DNA of 64,000 nucleotides. It comes from an uncultured Bacilli bacterium (lineage in GTDB: Bacteria > Bacillota_I > Bacilli_A > RF39 > UBA660). Of this stretch, positions 40,781 to 54,183 are shown one piece after another. The notes under the pieces were generated by a model that saw only the letters and a program-made list of their open reading frames with translations, was not told the DNA's origin and ran no database searches. Location: the NCBI GenBank assembly GCA_934102215.1, contig CAKOSH010000003.1, positions 59,187 through 123,186 of the forward strand. The letters are read 5' to 3'. The position numbers and the translations under genes are program-made. How positions within the stretch are numbered: position 1 is the stretch's first letter; each line of letters opens with the position of its first letter.

Positions 40781-41233
40781 TTATAAACATTCTACATAGG
40801 TATCATTTAAGCATCTTATTGAGCATAAACAATTACAATCCATTGTGAAAATTGAATCTGTACTTACATATGGATAAAGTGAAGTTGTATCAGGGTTTGC
40901 AGCTAGAACTCTAAATGTGCAGCAGCATCCATCTACTTTTTCAACTCTAAATACTGAACTAGTTGTATCTGTTTCTGTTCTACTTACAGGCATACTCCAA
41001 GGTGTGCCATTTCCACAGCAAGTATATAACATAATTGGACGAGTGTTGCATATTACACAGTTAGTGCCGCCACCTAAAGCAGGTCTATCACATGAAAGTA
41101 AGCAATTATCAGGGCAAGCATTAGACTGTAATACATTAATAACTTGTAATATTTCCATTATGCAGTTATCACATGTATTGCAATTGTTTTCATTATTATT
41201 ACACATATAATCCACTCCTTTATTTCTATTCAT
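40781..41233 (-). CDS. Cysteine-rich spore coat/exosporium protein of the CotY/CotZ/ExsY family
   Basis: Over 20 Cys in 150 aa; block SSVFRVEKVDGCCCTFRVL matches the CotZ/CotY signature ...FFRVEKL.DCCATL... Confidence 0.6.
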   Translation of the reverse strand: MNRNKGVDYMCNNNENNCNTCDNCIMEILQVINVLQSNACPDNCLLSCDRPALGGGTNCVICNTRPIMLYTCCGNGTPWSMPVSRTETDTTSSVFRVEKVDGCCCTFRVLAANPDTTSLYPYVSTDSIFTMDCNCLCSIRCLNDTYVECL

Positions 41234-41279
41234 TAATATGGTATGAATTATATTTATTTTTAGTTACATTATTTACCTA

Positions 41280-41558
41280 TTATTTAGTATATATTGGTGT
41301 TAAATTCTTATATTTATTTGGTACATTTAGTACAGTTACTAGTTTATTATTTTTAATTATATATATGTAGTTATTATAAACTGTTATTTTATGTTTGTTT
41401 TTATGTGCTAAATAGTCTAGGAATCTTCTAAAGTCACCATCGTATTGATAGTTATAATTTCCTTTCATTCTTGCTTGTTTGTAGTTGTGTCTTGTGTTTC
41501 TTACACCTACTCTTTCTTTAATTCTTTTCTTTCCGTGTTTAGTTACTATTCTTTTCAT
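41280..41558 (-). CDS. Hypothetical small basic protein
   Basis: 92-aa ORF, Lys/Arg/Tyr-rich; no motif. Confidence 0.35.
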   Translation of the reverse strand: MKRIVTKHGKKRIKERVGVRNTRHNYKQARMKGNYNYQYDGDFRRFLDYLAHKNKHKITVYNNYIYIIKNNKLVTVLNVPNKYKNLTPIYTK

Positions 41559-41564
41559 TCTTTT

Positions 41565-41936
41565 TTAATACCCCATTCTTTTAATTTTACTTATAATTTC
41601 ATCTTTATTAAATAATAGTATATCTTGTGAATTGTTGCTTATATCATATAGGATGTCACATAGTTTATCAATGCTGTAATCATATTTAAAATGTCTTGCT
41701 GATTCTAGCCATAGTTCATTTAATATATTTATTAATTTATAAGCGTTATCATGAGAATTAAATACCATTATTAACGAATCGTATTCATATAATCTTGTGA
41801 TATTTAATGTACCAAGTTTATTTCTTAATTCATTTAGTTCATCTTTATTTAGAATTTCTTTGTGTTCTGTTTCTGGTGCTTCTTCAAAAAATGTATTTAT
41901 AATTTTATTTTTAATATTATTTAATACTTTTATCAT
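41565..41936 (-). CDS. Hypothetical protein
   Basis: 123-aa ORF, tightly packed with neighbours. Confidence 0.35.
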   Translation of the reverse strand: MIKVLNNIKNKIINTFFEEAPETEHKEILNKDELNELRNKLGTLNITRLYEYDSLIMVFNSHDNAYKLINILNELWLESARHFKYDYSIDKLCDILYDISNNSQDILLFNKDEIISKIKRMGY

Positions 41937-41950
41937 TTTAATATTACTTT

Positions 41951-42415
41951 TTAATAAACTTCTTTTAATATTTCTATCATACTCAAATTATGAATTTTAT
42001 TGCCTTTTACTTTGTAAGTGCTGATAAGTTTCTTACATAAATTATTGATATTGCAATTTACTTTTAACTCTTTTTCAGTAAATATGATAAGGTAAGTTAA
42101 TATTCCAGTTAATTCATATGATAATTCTTTATCTTTTGTTTCTTTCATTAGTTTTGAAAATGCATATAGACTAGTGATACTTGATTCTCCTACTTGATCG
42201 TATAGTTTTAAAAATTCTTCTTTTGATAATTCATTTTCATTTGTATCAAATAATGTCTCACCATTAATAATGAGTTTCAATAATGTTTTTCCTTTCTTAT
42301 TATTATCGTTTTCTTTTGTAATTAAATTTTCTTTAATGTTTCTTTTTTCCATTATACTTTCTCCTTTTGATGGCATAAGTATAACATGCGTTTTTTTATA
42401 TCTTGTGTTTTTCAA
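41951..42415 (-). CDS. Hypothetical protein
   Basis: 154-aa ORF. Confidence 0.35.
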   Translation of the reverse strand: MKNTRYKKTHVILMPSKGESIMEKRNIKENLITKENDNNKKGKTLLKLIINGETLFDTNENELSKEEFLKLYDQVGESSITSLYAFSKLMKETKDKELSYELTGILTYLIIFTEKELKVNCNINNLCKKLISTYKVKGNKIHNLSMIEILKEVY

Positions 42416-42474
42416 AAAAAATTCGAGAAAAAAAGCACAAAAATGTGCTTTTGCTTTACATACTTTACATAGAA

Positions 42475-43857
42475 TTACGTATAAAATATGATTTTTTCAC
42501 TCTTTTTAAGGTTCTTTTGACTGCTGTTTTCTGGTTCTTCTTGTGTTTTCTCTATCTCTAAACTTCTAATTAATTCTAAAATATCCTCTATAGACTCTTC
42601 TGTACTTAATTCAAATTGTATATTATTTTTAAATAATCCAGTTTGTATTAGTGATTTAATTGATAATAATATTGACTTTCTTAAATCATTAAAGTAACTA
42701 TCTTTTAGTCTGTTAGGATCTACTTCATTTTCATTTTCTTTTACTTCAAGAGCATAAATAGTAGCAAAATTTCTTAATATTTTTCTTTGTTCTAATATAC
42801 TATAACTATCTTTTGTTTTTAAGAATAGTTCCATAAGTTTATCTAAGTCGTCTAGTGAAATTGATGTTTTCTCTTGTGTTTTTGAAATAAAATGTGATAA
42901 ATATTCATTTTTTAATTCATCTAGTTTTTCTACTAGGGTTGTATTTTCTCCTTTTGTAAACATTAATTCAAATTCGAGTCTTGCTTCTAATGAAATAAGT
43001 GCTGACTCCGATACTGTTTTATTTTGCATGATATCTATACTATTTAAAGCACGCTCATATTCTTCACTATAAAATTTACTTCTTTCTGGATTTATACTTT
43101 CTAATCTGCTTATCATATATTCTATATTTTCCATACTTATTGTAAGAGTATTTTGACTTTGTCTTTGTGGTTTTTCTTTTTTTCTTTTAGATATTTCTGT
43201 TACTTCTACCTCTTCACTTAAAACATTTTTATTTGATTCATATGTTATTTTGTCTATTCTTTTTTGTTTTTTCTTTTCACCAAAGAACATTCTATCATAT
43301 TCATTTAAATATTCATCTAAATCATTTTTATCAGCTACTTCTTCAAACATCATGACTGAATATATTTTCTCATAGTTTGGATGTCTATACTCTGTTTCTA
43401 TTTTAATTGTGAATGTTGATGCATTTGGGCATGATGGGATATCAGTGAGAGTATATTTCATAAATTTTGTATGACTATCACTTATTGGAAATAATTTTCC
43501 GCTTAGTAGTTCTCTTGCATATATATTACCTTCAGCATCTTCTACTTTTTCATACATTAGATTTAGTAAAACATCATTTTCATATATGGTTGGTCCTACA
43601 TCTTTAAATACATTATTTAATGATGCGATCATTTGTGGAGATGTTACTTCTACACTGCTTTTTCTATTAAAAGTTCTAAGTGCTTCTTTAGATAAGCTTT
43701 GTATTATATCGCATATTTCTATATCTGAGATTCTTCTTCCATCTAATTCTACTACTCTGTATCCATAACCTTGTAGTGCCACGTCTACGCTAGGATAATC
43801 TGTAGCATCAGCACAAGATATTAAACATCCTTTAAAATATTGCTTCATATTAATCAC
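42475..43857 (-). CDS. Hypothetical protein, tandem paralog A (460 aa)
   Basis: Shares N-terminal block YEKVEDAEGNIYARELLSGKLFPIS, basic linker KRKKEKPQRQSQNT and a 200-aa helical C-terminal domain (about 70% identical) with 43914..45263. Confidence 0.5.
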   Translation of the reverse strand: MINMKQYFKGCLISCADATDYPSVDVALQGYGYRVVELDGRRISDIEICDIIQSLSKEALRTFNRKSSVEVTSPQMIASLNNVFKDVGPTIYENDVLLNLMYEKVEDAEGNIYARELLSGKLFPISDSHTKFMKYTLTDIPSCPNASTFTIKIETEYRHPNYEKIYSVMMFEEVADKNDLDEYLNEYDRMFFGEKKKQKRIDKITYESNKNVLSEEVEVTEISKRKKEKPQRQSQNTLTISMENIEYMISRLESINPERSKFYSEEYERALNSIDIMQNKTVSESALISLEARLEFELMFTKGENTTLVEKLDELKNEYLSHFISKTQEKTSISLDDLDKLMELFLKTKDSYSILEQRKILRNFATIYALEVKENENEVDPNRLKDSYFNDLRKSILLSIKSLIQTGLFKNNIQFELSTEESIEDILELIRSLEIEKTQEEPENSSQKNLKKSEKIIFYT

Positions 43858-43913
43858 CTTTGAGTGATATTATATATTATTTTTTAGCAAAAGAAAAGAA
43901 CTTTTATAGTCCA

Positions 43914-45263
43914 CTACATAACTAATTCAAGTTCTTTTGCATCTTCTAATGATATTTTCTTAAATTCTAAGTTTTTAATTAAATTTAGTATTTCTTCTGT
44001 ATTTTCAGTATCTGTTAACTCTGTTATTATATTGTCTTTAACATATCCACTTTCTACTAAAGCATTTATAAATAATAATATAGATTTTTTTAAATCTTCA
44101 AAATAGCTATCTTGTAGTCTTTCAACAGTTACTTCGCTTTCATTTTCTTTAACTTCTAAAGCATAAACACTAGCAAAGTTTCTTAGTATTTTTCTTTGTT
44201 CTAAAATACTATAGCTATCTTTTGTTTTTAAAAATAGTTCCATTAGTTTATCTAAATCATCAAGTGTTATTGATGTTTTTTCTTGCGTTTCACTCACAAA
44301 ATGTAATAAATATTCTTTTCTTAATTCTTCTAACTTATCCGTTAAAGAAGTATTTTCTCCTTTTGCAAACATTAATTCAAATTCAAGTTTTGCTTCTAAT
44401 GCGATTAATGCTGCTTCTGATACCATTTTATTTTGCATAATATCTTCTATATTTAATACTTGATCATATTCTTCACTAAATTCTTTTGCTTTTGCTGGAT
44501 TAACTTTTTTTAGTTTTTGTATTAAATATTCAATGTTTTCCATACATTTTGTAGTAATATTTTGACTTTCTCTTTTTCTTTTTTCTTTCTTTTTAGGCTT
44601 AATAGGATACACTTCTACTTCACTATCAAGAGTATTTGACATGGAATCCTCTCTTACTTTGCTTAAAAACTTTTCTTTTGCTTTTTGATGTCTAAATCCA
44701 CCATCAAATTGTGTTTTATAATTTTCCACATCATTTGGTGAAGCAATTTTATAATCAGTAACAATTTTTTCTATTCTAGCATAATTAACATGATTAGAAT
44801 CTGAAGAAATAGTAAGATCACAATAATCAACAATGCTTCCATTGGTTACTAATCTTTTAACAGTATATACCTTTGTTTCAACAGCACCATCGCATGAGAT
44901 TGGAAATATAGAACCAGTTAATAATTCTTTAGCATATATATTTCCATCTTGATCTTCTACTCTCTCATATATTATTTCTTCATAAGTGCTGTTGTCGATA
45001 TAATAATGTTGTGTATTAGAATATTCTTTATTTAATATTTTGATTATTTCTTCATCATCAATTTGAAATGTTTCAAATTCAGTTATTCTATTAGATAATG
45101 ATTTTAAATAATTTGTTAATATTTTTTGACTTTTACTATCTATATTAGCAAAGTCTTTACCATTTAATTTTGAAAAACTACCATAGCTATATATTAATCT
45201 TACATCTATTGGTTTTATAGCATTCTTTGGTATTACTCTACCTTTATATAACATATTAATCAC
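43914..45263 (-). CDS. Hypothetical protein, tandem paralog B (449 aa)
   Basis: See paralog A; the upstream 55 bp (RBS/promoter region) is also duplicated (CATATTAATCACCTTT...AAAGAAAAGAACT). Confidence 0.5.
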   Translation of the reverse strand: MINMLYKGRVIPKNAIKPIDVRLIYSYGSFSKLNGKDFANIDSKSQKILTNYLKSLSNRITEFETFQIDDEEIIKILNKEYSNTQHYYIDNSTYEEIIYERVEDQDGNIYAKELLTGSIFPISCDGAVETKVYTVKRLVTNGSIVDYCDLTISSDSNHVNYARIEKIVTDYKIASPNDVENYKTQFDGGFRHQKAKEKFLSKVREDSMSNTLDSEVEVYPIKPKKKEKRKRESQNITTKCMENIEYLIQKLKKVNPAKAKEFSEEYDQVLNIEDIMQNKMVSEAALIALEAKLEFELMFAKGENTSLTDKLEELRKEYLLHFVSETQEKTSITLDDLDKLMELFLKTKDSYSILEQRKILRNFASVYALEVKENESEVTVERLQDSYFEDLKKSILLFINALVESGYVKDNIITELTDTENTEEILNLIKNLEFKKISLEDAKELELVM

Positions 45264-45287
45264 CTTTAAATAGTATTATATATTATT

Positions 45288-45320
45288 TTTAAATAAAAGA
45301 AAAGAACTATTACTAGTTCT
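45288..45320 (-). terminator. Rho-independent terminator of the rplU-prp-rpmA operon (AGAACTAGTAATAGTTCT plus TTTCTTTTATTT), overlapping the rpmA stop
   Basis: 7-bp stem, 4-nt loop, U-tract on minus strand. Confidence 0.55.
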
Positions 45321-45597
45321 CATAAACGCTAACTTGTTTTTTGTCTTTTCCTTTTCTTTCAAACTTTACATTTCCATTAATTTTAGCATATAAAGTATGA
45401 TCTTTACCCATTCCTACATTGTTTCCTGGATAAATTTTAGTTCCTCTTTGACGATAAATTATTGCGCCAGCTTTAGCAGTTTGTCCGTCGCTTAACTTAG
45501 CACCTAATCTACGACCAGCAGAATCTCTACCATTCTTTGTAGAACCAACACCTTTTTTAGATGCGAATAATTGTATATTTAACTTCATCTTATTCAT
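45313..45597 (-). CDS. rpmA: 50S ribosomal protein L27 with N-terminal propeptide ([16 protein letters not shown])
   Basis: [19 protein letters not shown]... matches Firmicute L27 including the Prp cleavage site (F/A). AAGGAGG RBS before ATG at 45595-45597. Confidence 0.9.
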
Positions 45598-46203: not shown

Positions 46204-46309
46204 TTTATTCCTCCTTCAATAAGACTCGCTTTTAAGGCAAGAATTTTTCATCTTTTAAATAACCTTTTCAATGCGGTTGTAGAGAAAGATTTCTACAAAC
46301 ATGGATATT
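46204..46309 (-). promoter_or_regulatory. rplU leader region with sigma-A-like promoter TTGACA-N17-TAAAAT and a stem-loop (possible L21 leader)
   Basis: Minus strand TTGACAGAACCACGTATTTATGCTAAAAT followed by inverted repeat TGTAGAGAAAGATTTCTACA. Confidence 0.4.
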
Positions 46310-47053
46310 TTAGCATAAATACGTGGTTCTGTCAAATAATTTCTTTAAGTATTTCTTCTCTAACATATTATTTATTATGTGATAATTATCTCTTTTTAAA
46401 TTATTTATATTATTGATTATTCTTGTTCTTTTAAAATTATAATCATTTAGATATCTTTCTAATAAGAATTTATTATATTTGTATTTTAGATTATTTATTT
46501 CTAAGATGATACATTTTATTAAAAATAATGTTAAAAGTAATCCTAAATATGTTCTTTTTGATAATAAAAATATTATAGTAAAAATAATAGAAATTACTAT
46601 TGATATTTTAAATGAAAGTTTATATGGAAATATTTTATCGAGTATGATATTTAGTAGTTTACCACCATCAAGTGGTAGTATTGGAAGAAAGTTATATGAT
46701 ACGAGTAGTTTATTTATATTATTAATTATATTATAGGTATGATATGTTACATAGTTATTTTGATATAGAATGAGTATTAAATAAACAAAACATAATTGAA
46801 ATGTGATACCACCTATTAAAGTAAAAAGTTCTTTATTTACGCTTACATTTAAGTCTTCATTATAATTAGTTATACCACCAAATGGATATATTACTATTTC
46901 ACTATATTTAAAGTCTACTATTTTGCTAAAGATATAGTGTCCACTTTCATGAATAAATATTATCAATAAAAAAAGATATACATACTCAAAATATCCACTT
47001 AAAAAAGATAAAAGAACGAATATATATGTTGTATTATGTATATTAATTTTCAT
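46310..47053 (-). CDS. spoIVFB: Site-2 protease (M50), SpoIVFB-like pro-sigma-K processing enzyme
   Basis: HESGH (HExxH) in TM helix and LPILPLDGGKL (LDG motif); located upstream of rplU as spoIVFB is in Bacillus. Confidence 0.7.
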   Translation of the reverse strand: MKINIHNTTYIFVLLSFLSGYFEYVYLFLLIIFIHESGHYIFSKIVDFKYSEIVIYPFGGITNYNEDLNVSVNKELFTLIGGITFQLCFVYLILILYQNNYVTYHTYNIINNINKLLVSYNFLPILPLDGGKLLNIILDKIFPYKLSFKISIVISIIFTIIFLLSKRTYLGLLLTLFLIKCIILEINNLKYKYNKFLLERYLNDYNFKRTRIINNINNLKRDNYHIINNMLEKKYLKKLFDRTTYLC

Positions 47054-47591
47054 CTATATTAACTGGTTTATTGTCTTTTAAAAGAACATAATAATATTCA
47101 TTACTTGCTGTACCTATTATTTCACCAGATTCAATATAGTCATAAAGTTTAACTGATTCTTTTACATTTCCATACCAAGCATAATAACCATTGCTTTGTT
47201 GAATTATTATTGTATTGTTATAACCATCTTTATTACCAATAAATGTAACTATTCCACTATCTTTTAAATATATATTTTCACTTTTACCTACCATATATTT
47301 AATACCATCTTTATATTTTTCATGCTTTGTTTCTTCTTTAAATACCTTTCTTGTATCATTATTTTTAAATACATCTGTTGTCTTATTCATAAACTTATTT
47401 ATGAAGCTAAAATCTATCGTACTATTTAATACTTTATTAGTAACGAAATCTCTAAATTTAGGTGAATAATTACTTATAATAACAACTAACATTGTAAAAA
47501 TAACTATTGTAAATAGTTTACTCATGAATGTTTTAAATATACTTTTACCACCTGTTTCTTTTTTATTATTTTTATATTCTTCGTATGTCAT
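47043..47591 (-). CDS. spoIVFA: SpoIVFA-like protein (TM plus degenerate LytM/M23 domain)
   Basis: Single N-terminal TM; C-terminal region with M23-like beta-barrel blocks lacking metal ligands; position upstream of spoIVFB. Confidence 0.45.
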   Translation of the reverse strand: MTYEEYKNNKKETGGKSIFKTFMSKLFTIVIFTMLVVIISNYSPKFRDFVTNKVLNSTIDFSFINKFMNKTTDVFKNNDTRKVFKEETKHEKYKDGIKYMVGKSENIYLKDSGIVTFIGNKDGYNNTIIIQQSNGYYAWYGNVKESVKLYDYIESGEIIGTASNEYYYVLLKDNKPVNIDEN

Positions 47592-49389: not shown

Positions 49390-50298
49390 ATGAAAAAAAT
49401 CAAATATGTAATACTTACTATAATTTTTATTATATTTATTATTAATATTGATATTGTTATTACTTCTGTAAAGAGTGCATCAATTATATTTTTTAATAAG
49501 GTTTTTGTGAGTATTTTTCCATTTATTATACTTAGTGATATATTATATTATTATAATTATCATTTATTCTTAAAAGATAATATTGGTGCATTTATATCTA
49601 AAATATTCAATATTAGTAGTAAGTCTAGTAGTATATTTTTACTATGTTTATTTACTAGTCATCCAGGAAATGCAATATACATTAAGAATATGCTTGATAA
49701 TGATGAAATTAGTTTAAATGATGCTTCTAATTTACTTTGTTATACATTTTTTCCATCAATTGCTTTTGTTATTGGAACAATTGGAATAAGTTTATATGAT
49801 AGTTATAAATTTGGATTATATCTATATTTAATATGCTTAATAAATAATATTTTAATTGGAATATTTTTAAGAAATAAGAATGATAATATTGATAGTGATG
49901 TTGTTATTAATAATAATTCTAATATTTTTGATGTTATTTCTAGTTCTATAATGAAAGGTATTAATACTTCATTTATCATTCTTGGAACTCTTATTATATT
50001 TACTATTATTATTAATTTAATTCTTAAATATATAAATATTAATTCATATATGATTGGTATTTTTAGTGGTATTTTAGAACTAACTAGTGGTGTTATTAAG
50101 ATAAGTGATATAAGTAGTAGTATCAACATTAAATTTCTTTTAACAACTCTTATTTTATGTTTTAGTAGTCTATCTATATTATTTCAAAGTTTTACTATAC
50201 TAAGTAAATATAAAATTAACATTAAAAAAATATTAATCGTTAAATTAATATTTTCTATTATGACTACTTGTCTACTGTATCTGTTCCATATAATTTAA
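49390..50298 (+). CDS. Polytopic membrane protein, possibly YlbJ-like sporulation integral membrane protein
   Basis: 8-10 predicted TM helices; adjacency to the ylbL-like gene as in Bacillus; no motif-level support. Confidence 0.35.
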   Translation: MKKIKYVILTIIFIIFIINIDIVITSVKSASIIFFNKVFVSIFPFIILSDILYYYNYHLFLKDNIGAFISKIFNISSKSSSIFLLCLFTSHPGNAIYIKNMLDNDEISLNDASNLLCYTFFPSIAFVIGTIGISLYDSYKFGLYLYLICLINNILIGIFLRNKNDNIDSDVVINNNSNIFDVISSSIMKGINTSFIILGTLIIFTIIINLILKYININSYMIGIFSGILELTSGVIKISDISSSINIKFLLTTLILCFSSLSILFQSFTILSKYKINIKKILIVKLIFSIMTTCLLYLFHII

Positions 50299-50878
50299 TA
50301 TTATAATCTTCATCACTTAAATGTATTGTAAGTATATTAAGTACATCTTTTTTAGTACTATTCTTTTTATTATCATAAGAATATTCATCTAATGAAAGAC
50401 CTATAAATTTATGACCACTTGTTGTAAGTTTATCTGGATCGCTAAAGTCCATTCTGTTTTCCATCTCTATTGTACGTATAAATTTTCTTTTATTTGTCTT
50501 ACTATCAGTATATGAAATTGTACTCAAATCAGTCTTTCTTCTACCTATTCTTTTACCTGATTCGTCTGTTATTTCTACATAACCATTTTTATCTGTTGTA
50601 TATATTTCTAATGTTCTTTCTTCTCCATTTTTGAATTTTAATTTGCATTTACTTCCTTCTTCATTACATGTTCCGCTTGATATACCTTTATTATTTATAA
50701 TATCATTATTTATATGTCTTGATATTGAAGCACTATATATTCTTATATCACTATCTTCTTCAATTACTTCATATGTTTGTTTTAGTTTTACTAATGTTGC
50801 TAAAAGTGATACTAATATAATTGATACTAATGTTATACTTACTATTAACTCGATTAATGTAAATCCTTTTTTATTCAT
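50264..50878 (-). CDS. Type IV pilin / pseudopilin-like protein (canonical prepilin N-terminus KGFTLIELIV)
   Basis: Class III signal peptide motif G/FTLIE with Glu+5 followed by hydrophobic helix. Confidence 0.7.
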   Translation of the reverse strand: MNKKGFTLIELIVSITLVSIILVSLLATLVKLKQTYEVIEEDSDIRIYSASISRHINNDIINNKGISSGTCNEEGSKCKLKFKNGEERTLEIYTTDKNGYVEITDESGKRIGRRKTDLSTISYTDSKTNKRKFIRTIEMENRMDFSDPDKLTTSGHKFIGLSLDEYSYDNKKNSTKKDVLNILTIHLSDEDYNIKLYGTDTVDK

Positions 50879-50888
50879 AGTTCCTCCG

Positions 50889-51389
50889 TTATAGCATTAT
50901 AGATGCATAATAATATTTTCCTTTTCTATAAAATACACCAACTATATAATTTATTGGTAATCCTGTATCGTCATCTAATTTCTTTAATGTTTTTATATAT
51001 TCTAGTGTTCCATTATCATATTTTTTTGTATTATAGTTTCCACTTGAATCTTTTGTTTTTAATGCATCTTCTACATTATTTATTTTTATAAAATATATTA
51101 AATCAGTATCTTTAAATACTTGAGTGCAGTTACTTAGTACTGTTCCCATAGTAGTACTTGTGCAGTTGTCTTTAGAAGCAATCATGTCATTTTGATAACT
51201 TGAACCTGTTTTATTACCTAGTTCATTTATTGTCCACAATAGATATTTATCACTTGCTACATCGTAATATTTTCTTTCTTTTGATTTACTTTCTAATAAG
51301 TCATAACTTGAAAGTGACATTGCGAGTGCAAGTGCAACTACTATTAAAACTGTTACGCTTTCTATAAATATGAATCCATCTTTTTTCAT
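50889..51389 (-). CDS. Type IV pilin-like protein (N-terminus DGFIFIESVTVLIV)
   Basis: GFxxxE prepilin-like motif plus hydrophobic helix. Confidence 0.55.
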   Translation of the reverse strand: MKKDGFIFIESVTVLIVVALALAMSLSSYDLLESKSKERKYYDVASDKYLLWTINELGNKTGSSYQNDMIASKDNCTSTTMGTVLSNCTQVFKDTDLIYFIKINNVEDALKTKDSSGNYNTKKYDNGTLEYIKTLKKLDDDTGLPINYIVGVFYRKGKYYYASIML

Positions 51390-51390
51390 G

Positions 51391-52632
51391 TTATTCTCCT
51401 ATTACATATGGACTTGTTGAAAGTCCTGTACCACTTTCTATAACTGCATCTCCTCTTAATGTGATAACTGGAAATAATTTACCTGATGTTGAAGTTGTTA
51501 TTTCACTTAAAATTCCATTTGCGTCTAAACCAAAAAGATATGAGTCGTTAGAAGCTAAAGAGCTATTATATTTATACGCTTTTGGTGTCATTGTGTAATA
51601 ATAATTTCCATTAGATAAATAGAATGTACTTGATGATGTTTTACCAGCTCCTGCATATAAAAGTTCATCCATTGTAATTAAAGCTACTGGATATAATAAT
51701 TCACTATTTCCATTTGTTAGGGCAGTTGTGTATTTATCATTATCATTTATACAGTTAAATGAAGGACTACTACTATTAAATCTAAGTAAAGGGTCATAAT
51801 CTGTTGTGTTATTTCCATATCCAAGTTGTGTAGCTGAGCCTGTATATCCTTCACTACTTACTGTTATTTTTCTATCATTACAATAAATTGTATTAGCAAG
51901 ATATTTTGTAACATTATCACCTTTATTATATATATTGTTTTGTGTCCATGTTTCTAGTGCTTTCTTTGCGTTACTATCAGCTATTCCTTTGTGAGCAATA
52001 TCGTATGAAGTTGATGGTACTGTAGCATTACATGTTGTAGTATTTTCACATCCTTGATTTAATCCAACTCTAAATCCTATAAAAGCATTATCTTTTCTAG
52101 TTTGATTAAACATAGTTCCACTAATAGGAGCGGTAATTGTACCAGTTGGACAGCTTCCATTTATAGGTGTTCCTGCATATTGCATTCTTACAGCATTTCC
52201 TTCTGTAGTTCTAATTATTCTAAAACAAAATCCTGCATATATAACATAATTATTATTAACATTTCCTCTAAAATAATATACTTTAGTACCATTTATAGTT
52301 TTAGTTTGATCAATTGTATAATATAATCCTTGTCCATTTGTTGAACTAGATGGTATACTGAAATTTATTCCTGTAGTAGAGCTTACGTTTGTACTACTTA
52401 CATTATCAGGATAACTTAAATTATCTATTAAAATTCTATAATATAGTTTACTTTTTTGTTCATTTGAAACCTTTAAATCATTGTTAATTCTTTCGCTAAA
52501 AGTAGTTAATATTTTATTATTTCTTGAATATGTCTTAAGTATAGCAAGCATAACAAATAGAAATAATATTAAAAATGTATAAACAAGTGTTACTGATATA
52601 AATCCATTTTTATTTTTCATATTTTTCTTCAT
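51391..52632 (-). CDS. Large pilin-like protein (N-terminus NGFISVTLVYTFLIL, no Glu+5), Thr/Ser/Gly/Asn-rich
   Basis: Prepilin-like N-terminus lacking the +5 Glu, 413 aa, beta-rich low-complexity composition; first gene of a three-gene pilin-like operon. Confidence 0.45.
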   Translation of the reverse strand: MKKNMKNKNGFISVTLVYTFLILFLFVMLAILKTYSRNNKILTTFSERINNDLKVSNEQKSKLYYRILIDNLSYPDNVSSTNVSSTTGINFSIPSSSTNGQGLYYTIDQTKTINGTKVYYFRGNVNNNYVIYAGFCFRIIRTTEGNAVRMQYAGTPINGSCPTGTITAPISGTMFNQTRKDNAFIGFRVGLNQGCENTTTCNATVPSTSYDIAHKGIADSNAKKALETWTQNNIYNKGDNVTKYLANTIYCNDRKITVSSEGYTGSATQLGYGNNTTDYDPLLRFNSSSPSFNCINDNDKYTTALTNGNSELLYPVALITMDELLYAGAGKTSSSTFYLSNGNYYYTMTPKAYKYNSSLASNDSYLFGLDANGILSEITTSTSGKLFPVITLRGDAVIESGTGLSTSPYVIGE

Positions 52633-52700: not shown

Positions 52701-53519
52701 TTATTTATTTTCACTTACTACTCCTATACCAGAATATATATAAGAAAAAGTATTCTTAATATTATATGTGTTGTCCATTTCATTATCTATTCTTACTATT
52801 TTAGGTGGTATAGATATTAAGACATTAAATAACATTTTTTCTTCATCTGTTAAAGACAATGTTTCATTATATACCTTTAAAAGATATGGAAAATCTAATT
52901 TATAGCCTTCTTTTTTATAAAATTTATATAGATCAAGAATTGGAGTGTCAACCAAATAATTATCCCAACTGATTAAATAATTTTTATCTCCATGAATAAA
53001 ATGTTCAAATGAAACATTGTTATGATTTATACATACTCTTTCTTTTGATTTATATTCTACTATTTTGAACCACTTTTTTAGTTCTTCTTTAGCATACTTA
53101 AGCGATCCATCTATAGCACTATAGTTTCTTGCAAATAAATAATGTGATGGTGACATTAATTCTTCATTTTCTATTTCTTCTATAGCTTCTTCATAATATT
53201 TAGTTAAGTATTCTATATTTGATAACAATTTATTATATATTGTTTTATATTTATTCTTACTAACGTCTTTAAAAAACATTGTTTTATAGTGTAACATTGA
53301 TAATGTCTTTATAAGTTCTACGCCTTTAGATACTTCATGATATTTTTCTTCTTTTATATATTTAGTTGTTACTTCTCTATCATTTATATCTATTATTTCA
53401 GGGTAATTATCATATCTAACTGTATCAAGATATTCATATAACTCTAGTAAGTCATTATTTCTTTTTTTAACTACTTTGTCTTCATCAATTTGTACACTAT
53501 TTTTATACTTCTTACTCAT
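52701..53519 (-). CDS. CotS/YsxE-like (aminoglycoside-phosphotransferase fold) spore coat protein candidate
   Basis: FIHGDKNYLISWDNYLVDTPILDL resembles the APH/CotS H.D...N / IDxD blocks; located next to a LysM protein as ysxE-spoVID are in Bacillus. Confidence 0.4.
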   Translation of the reverse strand: MSKKYKNSVQIDEDKVVKKRNNDLLELYEYLDTVRYDNYPEIIDINDREVTTKYIKEEKYHEVSKGVELIKTLSMLHYKTMFFKDVSKNKYKTIYNKLLSNIEYLTKYYEEAIEEIENEELMSPSHYLFARNYSAIDGSLKYAKEELKKWFKIVEYKSKERVCINHNNVSFEHFIHGDKNYLISWDNYLVDTPILDLYKFYKKEGYKLDFPYLLKVYNETLSLTDEEKMLFNVLISIPPKIVRIDNEMDNTYNIKNTFSYIYSGIGVVSENK

Positions 53520-54183
53520 TTACTTCAGGTATAATTATCTTATCACCTATTTTTAGATCAGAGAGCGTATTATACATAGATAATTCTTCTTTAGTAATAT
53601 TATATTTATTACATATTGTATCTACTGTATCACCTTCTCTTAGAATGTAGATTTTATAGGTGTAATATTTATTTTCATTATTTATTATTGTATTTGTTAT
53701 ATTTGATATATTATTTTCTATATCAACGTCATTTATTACTGGTTCAACTGTCTTTTCTACTTCTTTAGGAAGTTTCATATCATCTTTAAAATAGTTATTT
53801 AAATAGTCATCTAATTCATCAGGCTCTTCTTCTATTTCGTTTTTCACTTCTTCTTTTGTTTCTTCTAATTCATCACAAGTAAGTAATAAATCAATATTAA
53901 CTTTTAATACATCTTTATTTATATCATATTTAAAATCATCTATATCTATTTTAATAGTATCTTTATCTACTTTTTTAGATATAGCTATACCAAATGGTAC
54001 TTTATATTCAAATTCTTCATCAATTACACTTGCTTCAGTCATCTTGTATGTACCATTTATATTTACTTCACCTTCAACTAAATCATCTAATATTTTATAG
54101 TCATGTTCTAAGCTGATATTAGTTATCTCTCCAATTTTAGTCTTGAAGATAATATCTTTTTTTAATGGAATAATTTCTTTCAT
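53512..54183 (-). CDS. LysM-domain protein, possible SpoVID/SipL-like coat morphogenetic protein
   Basis: C-terminal LysM YKIYILREGDTVDTICNKYNITKEELSMYNTLSDLKIGDKIIIP; acidic middle region. Confidence 0.4.
   Translation of the reverse strand: MKEIIPLKKDIIFKTKIGEITNISLEHDYKILDDLVEGEVNINGTYKMTEASVIDEEFEYKVPFGIAISKKVDKDTIKIDIDDFKYDINKDVLKVNIDLLLTCDELEETKEEVKNEIEEEPDELDDYLNNYFKDDMKLPKEVEKTVEPVINDVDIENNISNITNTIINNENKYYTYKIYILREGDTVDTICNKYNITKEELSMYNTLSDLKIGDKIIIPEVNE

Follow-up and report, generated by a model that had tools for sequence, protein, structure and literature searches.

In a 64,000-nucleotide (nt) stretch of the genome of an uncultured Bacilli bacterium (contig CAKOSH010000003.1, positions 59,187 to 123,186; hereafter the window), two adjacent large genes, A and B, follow the ribosomal protein gene rpmA and encode paralogs from an orphan protein family to which we give the name family X. 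We report that genes A and B derive from a tandem duplication that covered a whole unit, namely terminator-like hairpin, -10 box, ribosome-binding site and gene, as the preliminary description of this DNA had supposed, and that the divergence of the two proteins has been focused on their N-terminal domain. No known family or system could be attached to the large genes, and family X is therefore formally new, the novelty lying in the family and not in any demonstrated mechanism. The architecture of the proteins and the pattern of their evolution suggest that family X may work as an adaptor or scaffold, a reading to which we assign a probability of roughly one in three. The genes and signals that carry this account are the following, with lengths in amino acids (aa) and coordinates counted along the window.

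43914..45254, minus strand: large gene A, 446 aa, with its N-domain at 44640-45254, a Lys-rich linker at 44559-44639 and a helical C-domain at 43917-44558
42475..43848, minus strand: large gene B, 457 aa, the diverged paralog
45252..45312, minus strand: upstream unit, copy A, with a T-run, TATAAT at 45275-45280, the Shine-Dalgarno (SD) sequence AGGTGA at 45260-45265 and ATG at 45252-45254 (direct repeat D4)
43846..43906, minus strand: upstream unit, copy B, with a weak hairpin and T-run, TATAAT at 43869-43874, the SD sequence AGGTGA and ATG at 43846-43848
45292..45321, minus strand: terminator-like hairpin GAGAACTA-GTAA-TAGTTCTT with T-run, directly 3' of the rpmA stop codon (RNAfold, -7.9 kcal/mol)
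42428..42452, minus strand: intrinsic terminator AAAAGCACA-TTTT-TGTGCTTTT with T-run after gene B (RNAfold, about -13 kcal/mol), conserved in the related loci L002 and L019

The products of A and B are 47% identical over 449 aa (E 2e-118), which establishes them as the tandem paralogs they had been taken for. Identity is distributed unevenly along the proteins: it is 68% for the helical C-domain, in agreement with the figure of about 70% given previously for this region, 56% for the linker and 25% for the N-domain. The shared block YE(K/R)VED..GNIYA(R/K)ELL.G..FPIS and the Lys/Arg-rich linker are likewise present in both. The statement that both proteins start with MINM proved to be an artefact of open reading frame (ORF) calling. 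The GTG used as a start lies within the SD sequence AGGTGA, and the true initiation codons are the ATGs at 45254 and 43848; database homologs of A and B begin at this ATG, 9 nt downstream of the GTG, giving proteins of 446 and 457 aa.

The DNA upstream of the two genes was duplicated with them. The two upstream units are 61 nt each and 87% identical, a similarity far above that of synonymous coding positions (synonymous divergence, dS, of ∼0.8), indicating that the upstream unit has been selected in both copies and is not a residue of the duplication. TATAAT and AGGTGAT are kept across 11 upstream regions of relatives, and the hairpin after rpmA is kept in all relatives, where we read it as a moderate terminator of rplU-ysxB-rpmA. 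As judged from these signals, each large gene is its own unit, with a hairpin or T-run, a sigma-A-type -10 box and a strong ribosome-binding site. The hairpin of upstream unit B, which follows gene A, has a predicted stability of only -3.1 kcal/mol by RNAfold, so that read-through from A into B is plausible.

The locus was recovered in seven species representatives with identical synteny in all of them. The phylogenetic distribution, which the preliminary description had listed among its checks, is accordingly one of vertical inheritance in every species found, and outside this clade family X is not beside cotZ. A single copy follows rpmA in L004-L007, whereas two copies are present in the window, in L001-L003 and in the metagenomic loci L017-L019. 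Copy A is the ortholog of the single-copy gene, with 43% identity in the N-domain and 65-73% in the C-domain. In copy B the N-domain reaches only ∼25% identity with any other member, as far removed as family members belonging to other orders, and the C-domain stands slightly nearer to A (68% identity) than to the single-copy genes (60-63%). Between A and B, dS is 0.84 and 0.76 in the two halves of the gene, while the nonsynonymous divergence, dN, is 0.82 in the N-terminal half and 0.23 in the C-terminal half. Gene conversion was rejected as the cause of the C-domain similarity because dS is ∼0.8 in both halves. Equal dS together with a dN that is high in the N-terminal half alone argues instead for divergence focused on the N-domain, and we conclude that the N-domain of B changed at a near-neutral rate or adaptively and was later constrained again.

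Among close relatives, purifying selection is evident in both copies. Copy B has a dN/dS ratio of 0.16-0.20 in these comparisons; copy A, at 0.37 and with the same value in both halves, is now the less constrained of the two. Including the three small genes downstream, all five genes of the block are truly coding, with dN/dS of 0.09-0.37 against close relatives. Copy A is intact in the window and in L001. In other samples we observed C-domain-only ORFs of 209-242 aa at 90-94% identity.

A word-indexed search returned 127 relatives, none of them named and none with a meaningful Pfam domain. An exhaustive profile search put family X at 272 representative clusters for E <= 0.001, with 128 of them at E <= 1e-30, most being 400-540 aa long. 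Pfam, NCBIfam and PADLOC yielded no family match for A or B, nor a meaningful one in 51 diverse members; in PADLOC the best single-member values were E 0.0016-0.0024. A Pfam match of copy A to YlmH_1st (E 0.2) was treated as noise. Three family profiles found no match among PDB sequences, and the family was not found in INPHARED phages or IMG/VR viral contigs. A phage or plasmid origin was rejected on the basis of that absence from the INPHARED and IMG/VR collections.

The canonical N-domain motif, IIYE..D..GN.Y.KEL.TG..FPI, is present in 88 of the 116 full-length representatives. Five others (P0200, P0222, P0242, P0246 and P0254) carry a different N-domain with the pattern WW..TP...G(I/V)RP...EYG.YPQ, which shows weak similarity (E 1e-4) to a secreted, DUF6273-like product of L016. 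The joining of the usual C-domain to another N-domain in these five members indicates that the C-domain behaves as a portable module, and on sequence comparison it is the conserved core of the family, the N-domain being the variable part. A known N-terminal domain fused to the C-domain was also sought and discarded, since a C-domain profile search gave only family members and fragments, with no meaningful Pfam domain.

In the 51 diverse members conservation falls on columns of Tyr, Leu, Ile, Asn and Ser, with no conserved set of His, Cys or Asp, and no His is invariant in either 23 close or the 51 diverse members. A full-length AlphaFold2 model (mean predicted local distance difference test score 81) comprises an alpha/beta N-domain at residues 1-205, a disordered linker KPKKKEKRKR (disorder at 221-228) and about ten helices at 233-445. 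The protein is acidic, soluble and not Cys-rich. From these properties we infer that family X is probably a cytoplasmic, acidic, non-enzymatic protein of two domains.

In the adaptor or scaffold that we propose, recognition of a ligand or client protein would fall to the fast-evolving N-domain, and docking onto a conserved partner, or self-association, to the conserved C-domain, with the disordered Lys-rich linker as a flexible basic tether between them. The whole unit was duplicated at about the time the lineage split from its single-copy relatives, after which the new copy, B, changed its N-domain almost completely and kept its C-domain. The outcome would be two adaptors with one docking module and two specificities. 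Whatever the biochemical role of family X, the locus is a clean natural case of the tandem duplication of a whole unit followed by divergence of a single domain, and it points experimenters to the half of the protein that would bear specificity. What is described is nevertheless an orphan family and an ordinary evolutionary event, tandem duplicates of hypothetical proteins being otherwise common in bacterial genomes, and no long-standing question is opened by it.

Several observations weigh against the adaptor proposal. In scaffold FR880116.1 of Clostridium sp. CAG:524 (L002, 10001-11341) copy A is interrupted by an in-frame TAA (codon 246) where the C-domain begins. In L007 (9741-11131) two ORFs, an N-terminal one of 87 aa and another of 302 aa, stand in place of an intact single-copy gene, and the 302-aa form recurs in independent samples (P0095-P0097). 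The nonsense codon and the split gene together indicate that a family X gene is non-essential and, in some backgrounds, dispensable; copy A may be on its way to decay and not to a specialised role. Two glutamates, E97 and E110, are invariant among canonical N-domains and could be catalytic. The promoter calls are consensus readings in DNA of 75% A+T, in which a generic scanner returned 44 sigma-70 sites compared with 44.3 in shuffled sequence; the scanner being uninformative, promoter inferences rest on conservation across species. Finally, the adaptor idea itself draws only on architecture and evolutionary pattern.

Family X occurs in varied genomic contexts beyond the window clade. These are listed below as upstream genes > X > downstream genes, enzymes without a Pfam match being named by eye from their translations.

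L008: CotD-like gene, NERD-domain gene > X > transglutaminase-like gene, dam
L014 and L026: penicillin-binding protein gene, rpmG, efp > X > transglutaminase-like gene
L016: class-II aminoacyl-tRNA synthetase, best read as GlyRS > X
L022: two AsnRS/AspRS-type aminoacyl-tRNA synthetase genes (by eye), ClpX-like AAA_2 ATPase gene overlapping X by 8 nt > X
L023: GluRS > X
L024: clpP > X
L011: gmk > X > mutL
L013: ffh > X > CotD-like gene
L030: folD > X
L031: ThrRS > X
L032: spoVS, divergent > X > DUF87, hisS
L029: X > gene of no assigned function > rplK

Family X genes are nearly always stand-alone, placed right after a strongly expressed housekeeping gene and behind a terminator-like hairpin, with a promoter of their own. 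An extended -10 box, TGnTAnn(A/T)T, lies 24-33 nt upstream of the start codon in 8 of 16 contexts, compared with 10% of random 60-nt windows, and TATAAT is found in most of the remaining contexts. On these readings, family X genes are under sigma-A-type (TATAAT or TGnTATAAT) promoters in most lineages. Two trends among the neighbours, both noted post hoc and in a small sample, are an over-representation of translation genes upstream and the recurrence of Cys-rich coat-like genes nearby, these being cotZ-like in the window clade and CotD-like in L008 and L013. The two CotD-like, Cys/His-rich proteins (L008 6526-6849 and L013 2714-3073) are 65% identical over 62 aa, and that of L008 has a weak Pfam CotD match (E 0.007); the gene lies immediately downstream of X in L013 and two genes upstream of it in L008. 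The transglutaminase-like genes that follow X in L008 and in L014/L026 are weakly related to each other (E 1e-4).

In the window itself, G+C is ∼25%, the region is core chromosome and every gene near A and B is on the minus strand. The order of transcription is M23, M50, L21 leader, rplU, ysxB, rpmA, gene A, gene B, three small genes (133, 123 and 92 aa), cotZ-like, topA, hup and cca. The nearest public genomes are 'Clostridium sp. CAG:524' and metagenome-assembled genomes (MAGs) labelled Bacilli or Clostridium, with genomes or contigs of ∼1-1.5 Mb. One related MAG chromosome, L003 (CP091739.1), has many apparent frameshifts in otherwise conserved genes (radC, a spoIVFB-like gene, topA and cca) together with extra homopolymer bases; these are probably assembly errors, which makes the L003 gene models untrustworthy. 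The features that flank the large genes are as follows.

47043-47591, minus strand: M23 peptidase gene, placed upstream of rplU
46310-47053, minus strand: M50 peptidase gene, placed upstream of rplU
46212-46288, minus strand: L21_leader (Rfam RF00559, 45.3 bits, E 1e-6), upstream of rplU
42378..42386, minus strand: extended -10 box TGTTATACT of the small-gene operon, as we read the sequence
41951..42352, minus strand: small gene, 133 aa in the form on record (the mechanically called ORF reaches 42415, 154 aa); dN/dS 0.24
41565..41936, minus strand: small gene, 123 aa; dN/dS 0.15
41280..41558, minus strand: small basic gene, 92 aa, isoelectric point 10.4, highly conserved; dN/dS 0.05-0.09
41237..41264, minus strand: promoter-like element of the cotZ-like gene, with AC at 41263-41264, a 17-nt spacer and CATACCATA at 41237-41245
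40781..41206, minus strand: cotZ-like Cys-rich gene, 141 aa, with a probable ATG at 41206 behind AAGGAG by our reading (mechanically called ORF to 41233)

The L21 leader ahead of rplU shows that the ribosomal operon has its usual leader and forms a unit apart from the large genes. In Bacillus subtilis spoIVFA and spoIVFB lie upstream of rplU, like the M23 and M50 genes here. The cotZ-like product matches Pfam Spore-coat_CotZ (PF10612; E 6.2e-13, 49.6 bits against a cut-off of 24), bearing out its earlier assignment; the 150-aa product of the mechanically called ORF has 19 Cys, and dN/dS is 0.08. Its promoter-like element, AC-17 nt-CATACCATA, is kept in L002, L004, L006, L007 and L019, in L004 despite a different sequence further upstream. 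It conforms to AC-16/17-CATAnnnTA, the sigma-K consensus of B. subtilis, and comes close to the sigma-E -10 element, and the cotZ-like gene thus looks like one with a mother-cell-type (sigma-K or sigma-E) promoter. The block between rpmA and topA is therefore four separate transcription units with two promoter classes, rather than one system.

Two overlapping genes downstream of lon (52701-54183, minus strand) are by eye spoVID-like (223 aa, with a C-terminal LysM-like stretch) and ysxE-like (272 aa). Given the cotZ-like, M50 and M23, spoVID-like LysM and ysxE-like genes in the window, the host likely forms spores. At 50264-52632 (minus strand) are three consecutive genes for products with prepilin-like N-terminal hydrophobic segments (GFTLIE-type), which are comG- or pseudopilin-like; one of them encodes 413 aa rich in Asn, Ser and Thr.

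The three small genes are tightly packed, with gaps of 14 and 6 nt. Their extended -10 box, TGTTATACT, is of the sigma-A type, like those of the large genes; it is kept in L002, and L019 has TGTTATGCT and L006 TGATATAAT at this place. They had been described as unrelated ORFs, the first of them of 154 aa; the recorded gene runs for 133 aa from the ATG at 42352, and its product and the 123-aa protein are distant paralogs, alignable over their full length (29% identity over 77 aa, pairwise E 2e-7), so that a further and older tandem duplication lies within the block. The 123-aa gene yields a 103-aa product in most relatives, with a stop after codon 99. That the small ORFs might be fragments or relatives of the family X C-domain was rejected (hhalign probability < 0.3%). 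The earlier statement that no gene of the block fell in a recognisable family holds for A, B and the 133- and 123-aa proteins, the last two having no Pfam, NCBIfam or PADLOC match, but not for the 92-aa protein, which matches phrog_16724 (E 1.9e-11), a family without assigned function. The 92-aa protein is 89% identical in species where gene A is at 57% and its neighbours at 41-57%, and has invariant residues T6, H8, R12 and R16. Homologs occur in jumbo phages, namely Bacillus phage G (gp136), Brevundimonas phages and one 253-kb IMG/VR contig. The small genes vary among related species, being absent from L004, and in L007 a gene for a 574-aa membrane protein, by eye phosphoesterase-like, stands in place of the 133-aa gene.

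The location beside cotZ had led to the suggestion that these are lineage-specific spore-surface proteins. In its fuller form, family X would be a lineage-specific protein of sporulation or coat assembly, a cytoplasmic morphogenetic scaffold of the mother cell whose associates would be Cys-rich coat proteins and an enzyme of transglutaminase-like type. In its favour, the host likely forms spores, the distance from cotZ to X is 1-4 genes across the window clade, transglutaminase-like genes follow X in L008 and L014/L026, spoVS divergently adjoins it in L032, and its fast evolution is typical of coat proteins; the CotD-like gene within two genes of X in two unrelated contexts (L008 and L013) adds weak residual support. 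However, the promoters of X are sigma-A-type in most lineages, in contrast to the mother-cell-type CATACCATA box of the cotZ-like gene only 1-2 kb away, and most contexts have no adjoining sporulation gene. Outside the clade X adjoins rpmG-efp, glyS, gltX, thrS, ffh, clpP, gmk or folD rather than cotZ. Neither A, B nor the 51 diverse members show similarity to SpoIVA, SpoVID, CotE, SafA or CotH in Pfam or NCBIfam, and the acidic, soluble character of the protein and its lack of Cys-richness also speak against a coat component. We thus keep the lineage-specific and uncharacterised part of the suggestion and drop the deduction of a spore-surface role from cotZ adjacency, and regard the coat scaffold as possible but doubtful. 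The same neighbourhoods could be read as the mark of a translation-linked factor associated with the ribosome, tRNA or aminoacyl-tRNA synthetases, its Lys-rich linker contacting RNA. The same-strand upstream gene is rpmA in the clade, efp in L014 and L026, GlyRS-like in L016, GluRS in L023, ThrRS in L031 and ffh in L013, with AsnRS/AspRS genes (L022) and hisS (L032) one gene away, making ∼5-6 of 14 independent contexts compared with roughly 7% expected for translation genes in a small genome by a post hoc estimate. Elsewhere the neighbour is clpP, gmk, folD or a NERD-domain gene, and as each X gene comes with a promoter of its own downstream of a terminator-like hairpin, adjacency may only mirror sites at which insertion is tolerated, after monocistronic genes of strong expression. 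X contains no known RNA-binding domain, its dN/dS of 0.16-0.37 greatly exceeds the values for topA and L27 in these genomes, and the nonsense (CAG:524) and split (L007) alleles also speak against a translation factor, which we consider quite improbable.

Defence was the other role that had been proposed, as equally open. Here the large genes would be abortive-infection-like, or the small operon a toxin-antitoxin or immunity system in which the 92-aa protein is the toxin and the two paralogs are its antidotes. The variability of the small genes between related species (absence in L004, replacement in L007) counts in favour of such a system, as does the succession of two fast-evolving small proteins (41-51% identity) and, 6 nt on, a basic protein conserved at 89% that has homologs in jumbo phages; the 123-aa and 92-aa genes are both small and adjacent. 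The invariant N-terminal T-x-H-x3-R-x3-R motif of the 92-aa protein is reminiscent of DUF4258-type RNase toxins. A DUF4258/BECR-type RNase toxin is nevertheless kept as a lead and no more, as eight members of the 92-aa family matched neither DUF4258 nor any other toxin or antitoxin family in Pfam at E up to 10, and no such family was found in the PDB. PADLOC gave no convincing match, the best being GajA (E 5.6e-4), which aligned with a part of the 92-aa protein that is not diagnostic. The gene of the 92-aa protein is absent from plasmid collections, and its very low dN/dS (0.05) is more in keeping with a small protein of housekeeping or structural function. Synteny and vertical inheritance mark the large genes in seven species, and these genes are absent from phage and viral collections, and PADLOC found no meaningful match in the 51 members. 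A defence or toxin function is hence unlikely for the large genes and not equally open; for the small operon it stands as an unsupported lead, and for the block or any part of it we rate the chance as very slim. Compared with these alternatives, an adaptor or scaffold remains our preferred reading of family X. In a bolder version, which we offer as a long shot, the family would be a hitherto unrecognised part of the core cell biology of a low-GC lineage of gut Firmicutes that is abundant and uncultured, either a PAS/GAF-like ligand-sensing adaptor feeding clients to, for example, Clp proteases, or a coat-assembly scaffold with Cys-rich proteins and a transglutaminase-like enzyme, and duplication would have created a second specificity. 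Hosts of family X recur in human-gut metagenomes, where single clusters at 90% identity hold 463 and 611 sequences.

Among known systems, the coat morphogenetic proteins SpoVID/SipL, CotE and SafA and the crust proteins CotY/CotZ share with family X the cotZ-like or CotD-like neighbours, restriction to a lineage and fast evolution; they differ from it in that X has no homology to them, no LysM domain and no Cys-richness, and a promoter that is sigma-A-type instead of sigma-E or sigma-K. In B. subtilis the gene that follows rpmA is spo0B, and X occupies the same slot (M23, M50, rplU, ysxB, rpmA, X) and is also partly helical. Its domain order is reversed, however, it is twice the size and it is not beside rpmA outside the clade. 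A Spo0B-like function was rejected given that there is no conserved His and no Pfam or NCBIfam match to Spo0B or a histidine kinase. The N-domain is weakly similar to the small alpha/beta ligand-binding folds PAS/GAF (and START/Bet v 1), with twilight-zone scores and 5-10% sequence identity. In contrast to those domains, it is ∼200 aa long with extra strands and has no attached output domain (kinase, GGDEF or helix-turn-helix), and none of the 51 members has a Pfam PAS or GAF match. The adaptor MecA has an N-domain that recognises substrates, a flexible linker and a conserved docking C-domain. Although X has no sequence or profile similarity to MecA or to other adaptor families, it is alike in layout, and it neighbours clpP in L024 and an overlapping ClpX-like AAA_2 ATPase gene in L022, that is, Clp genes in 2 of ∼14 contexts. 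The likeness to MecA is thus one of layout only, a functional analogy and not membership.

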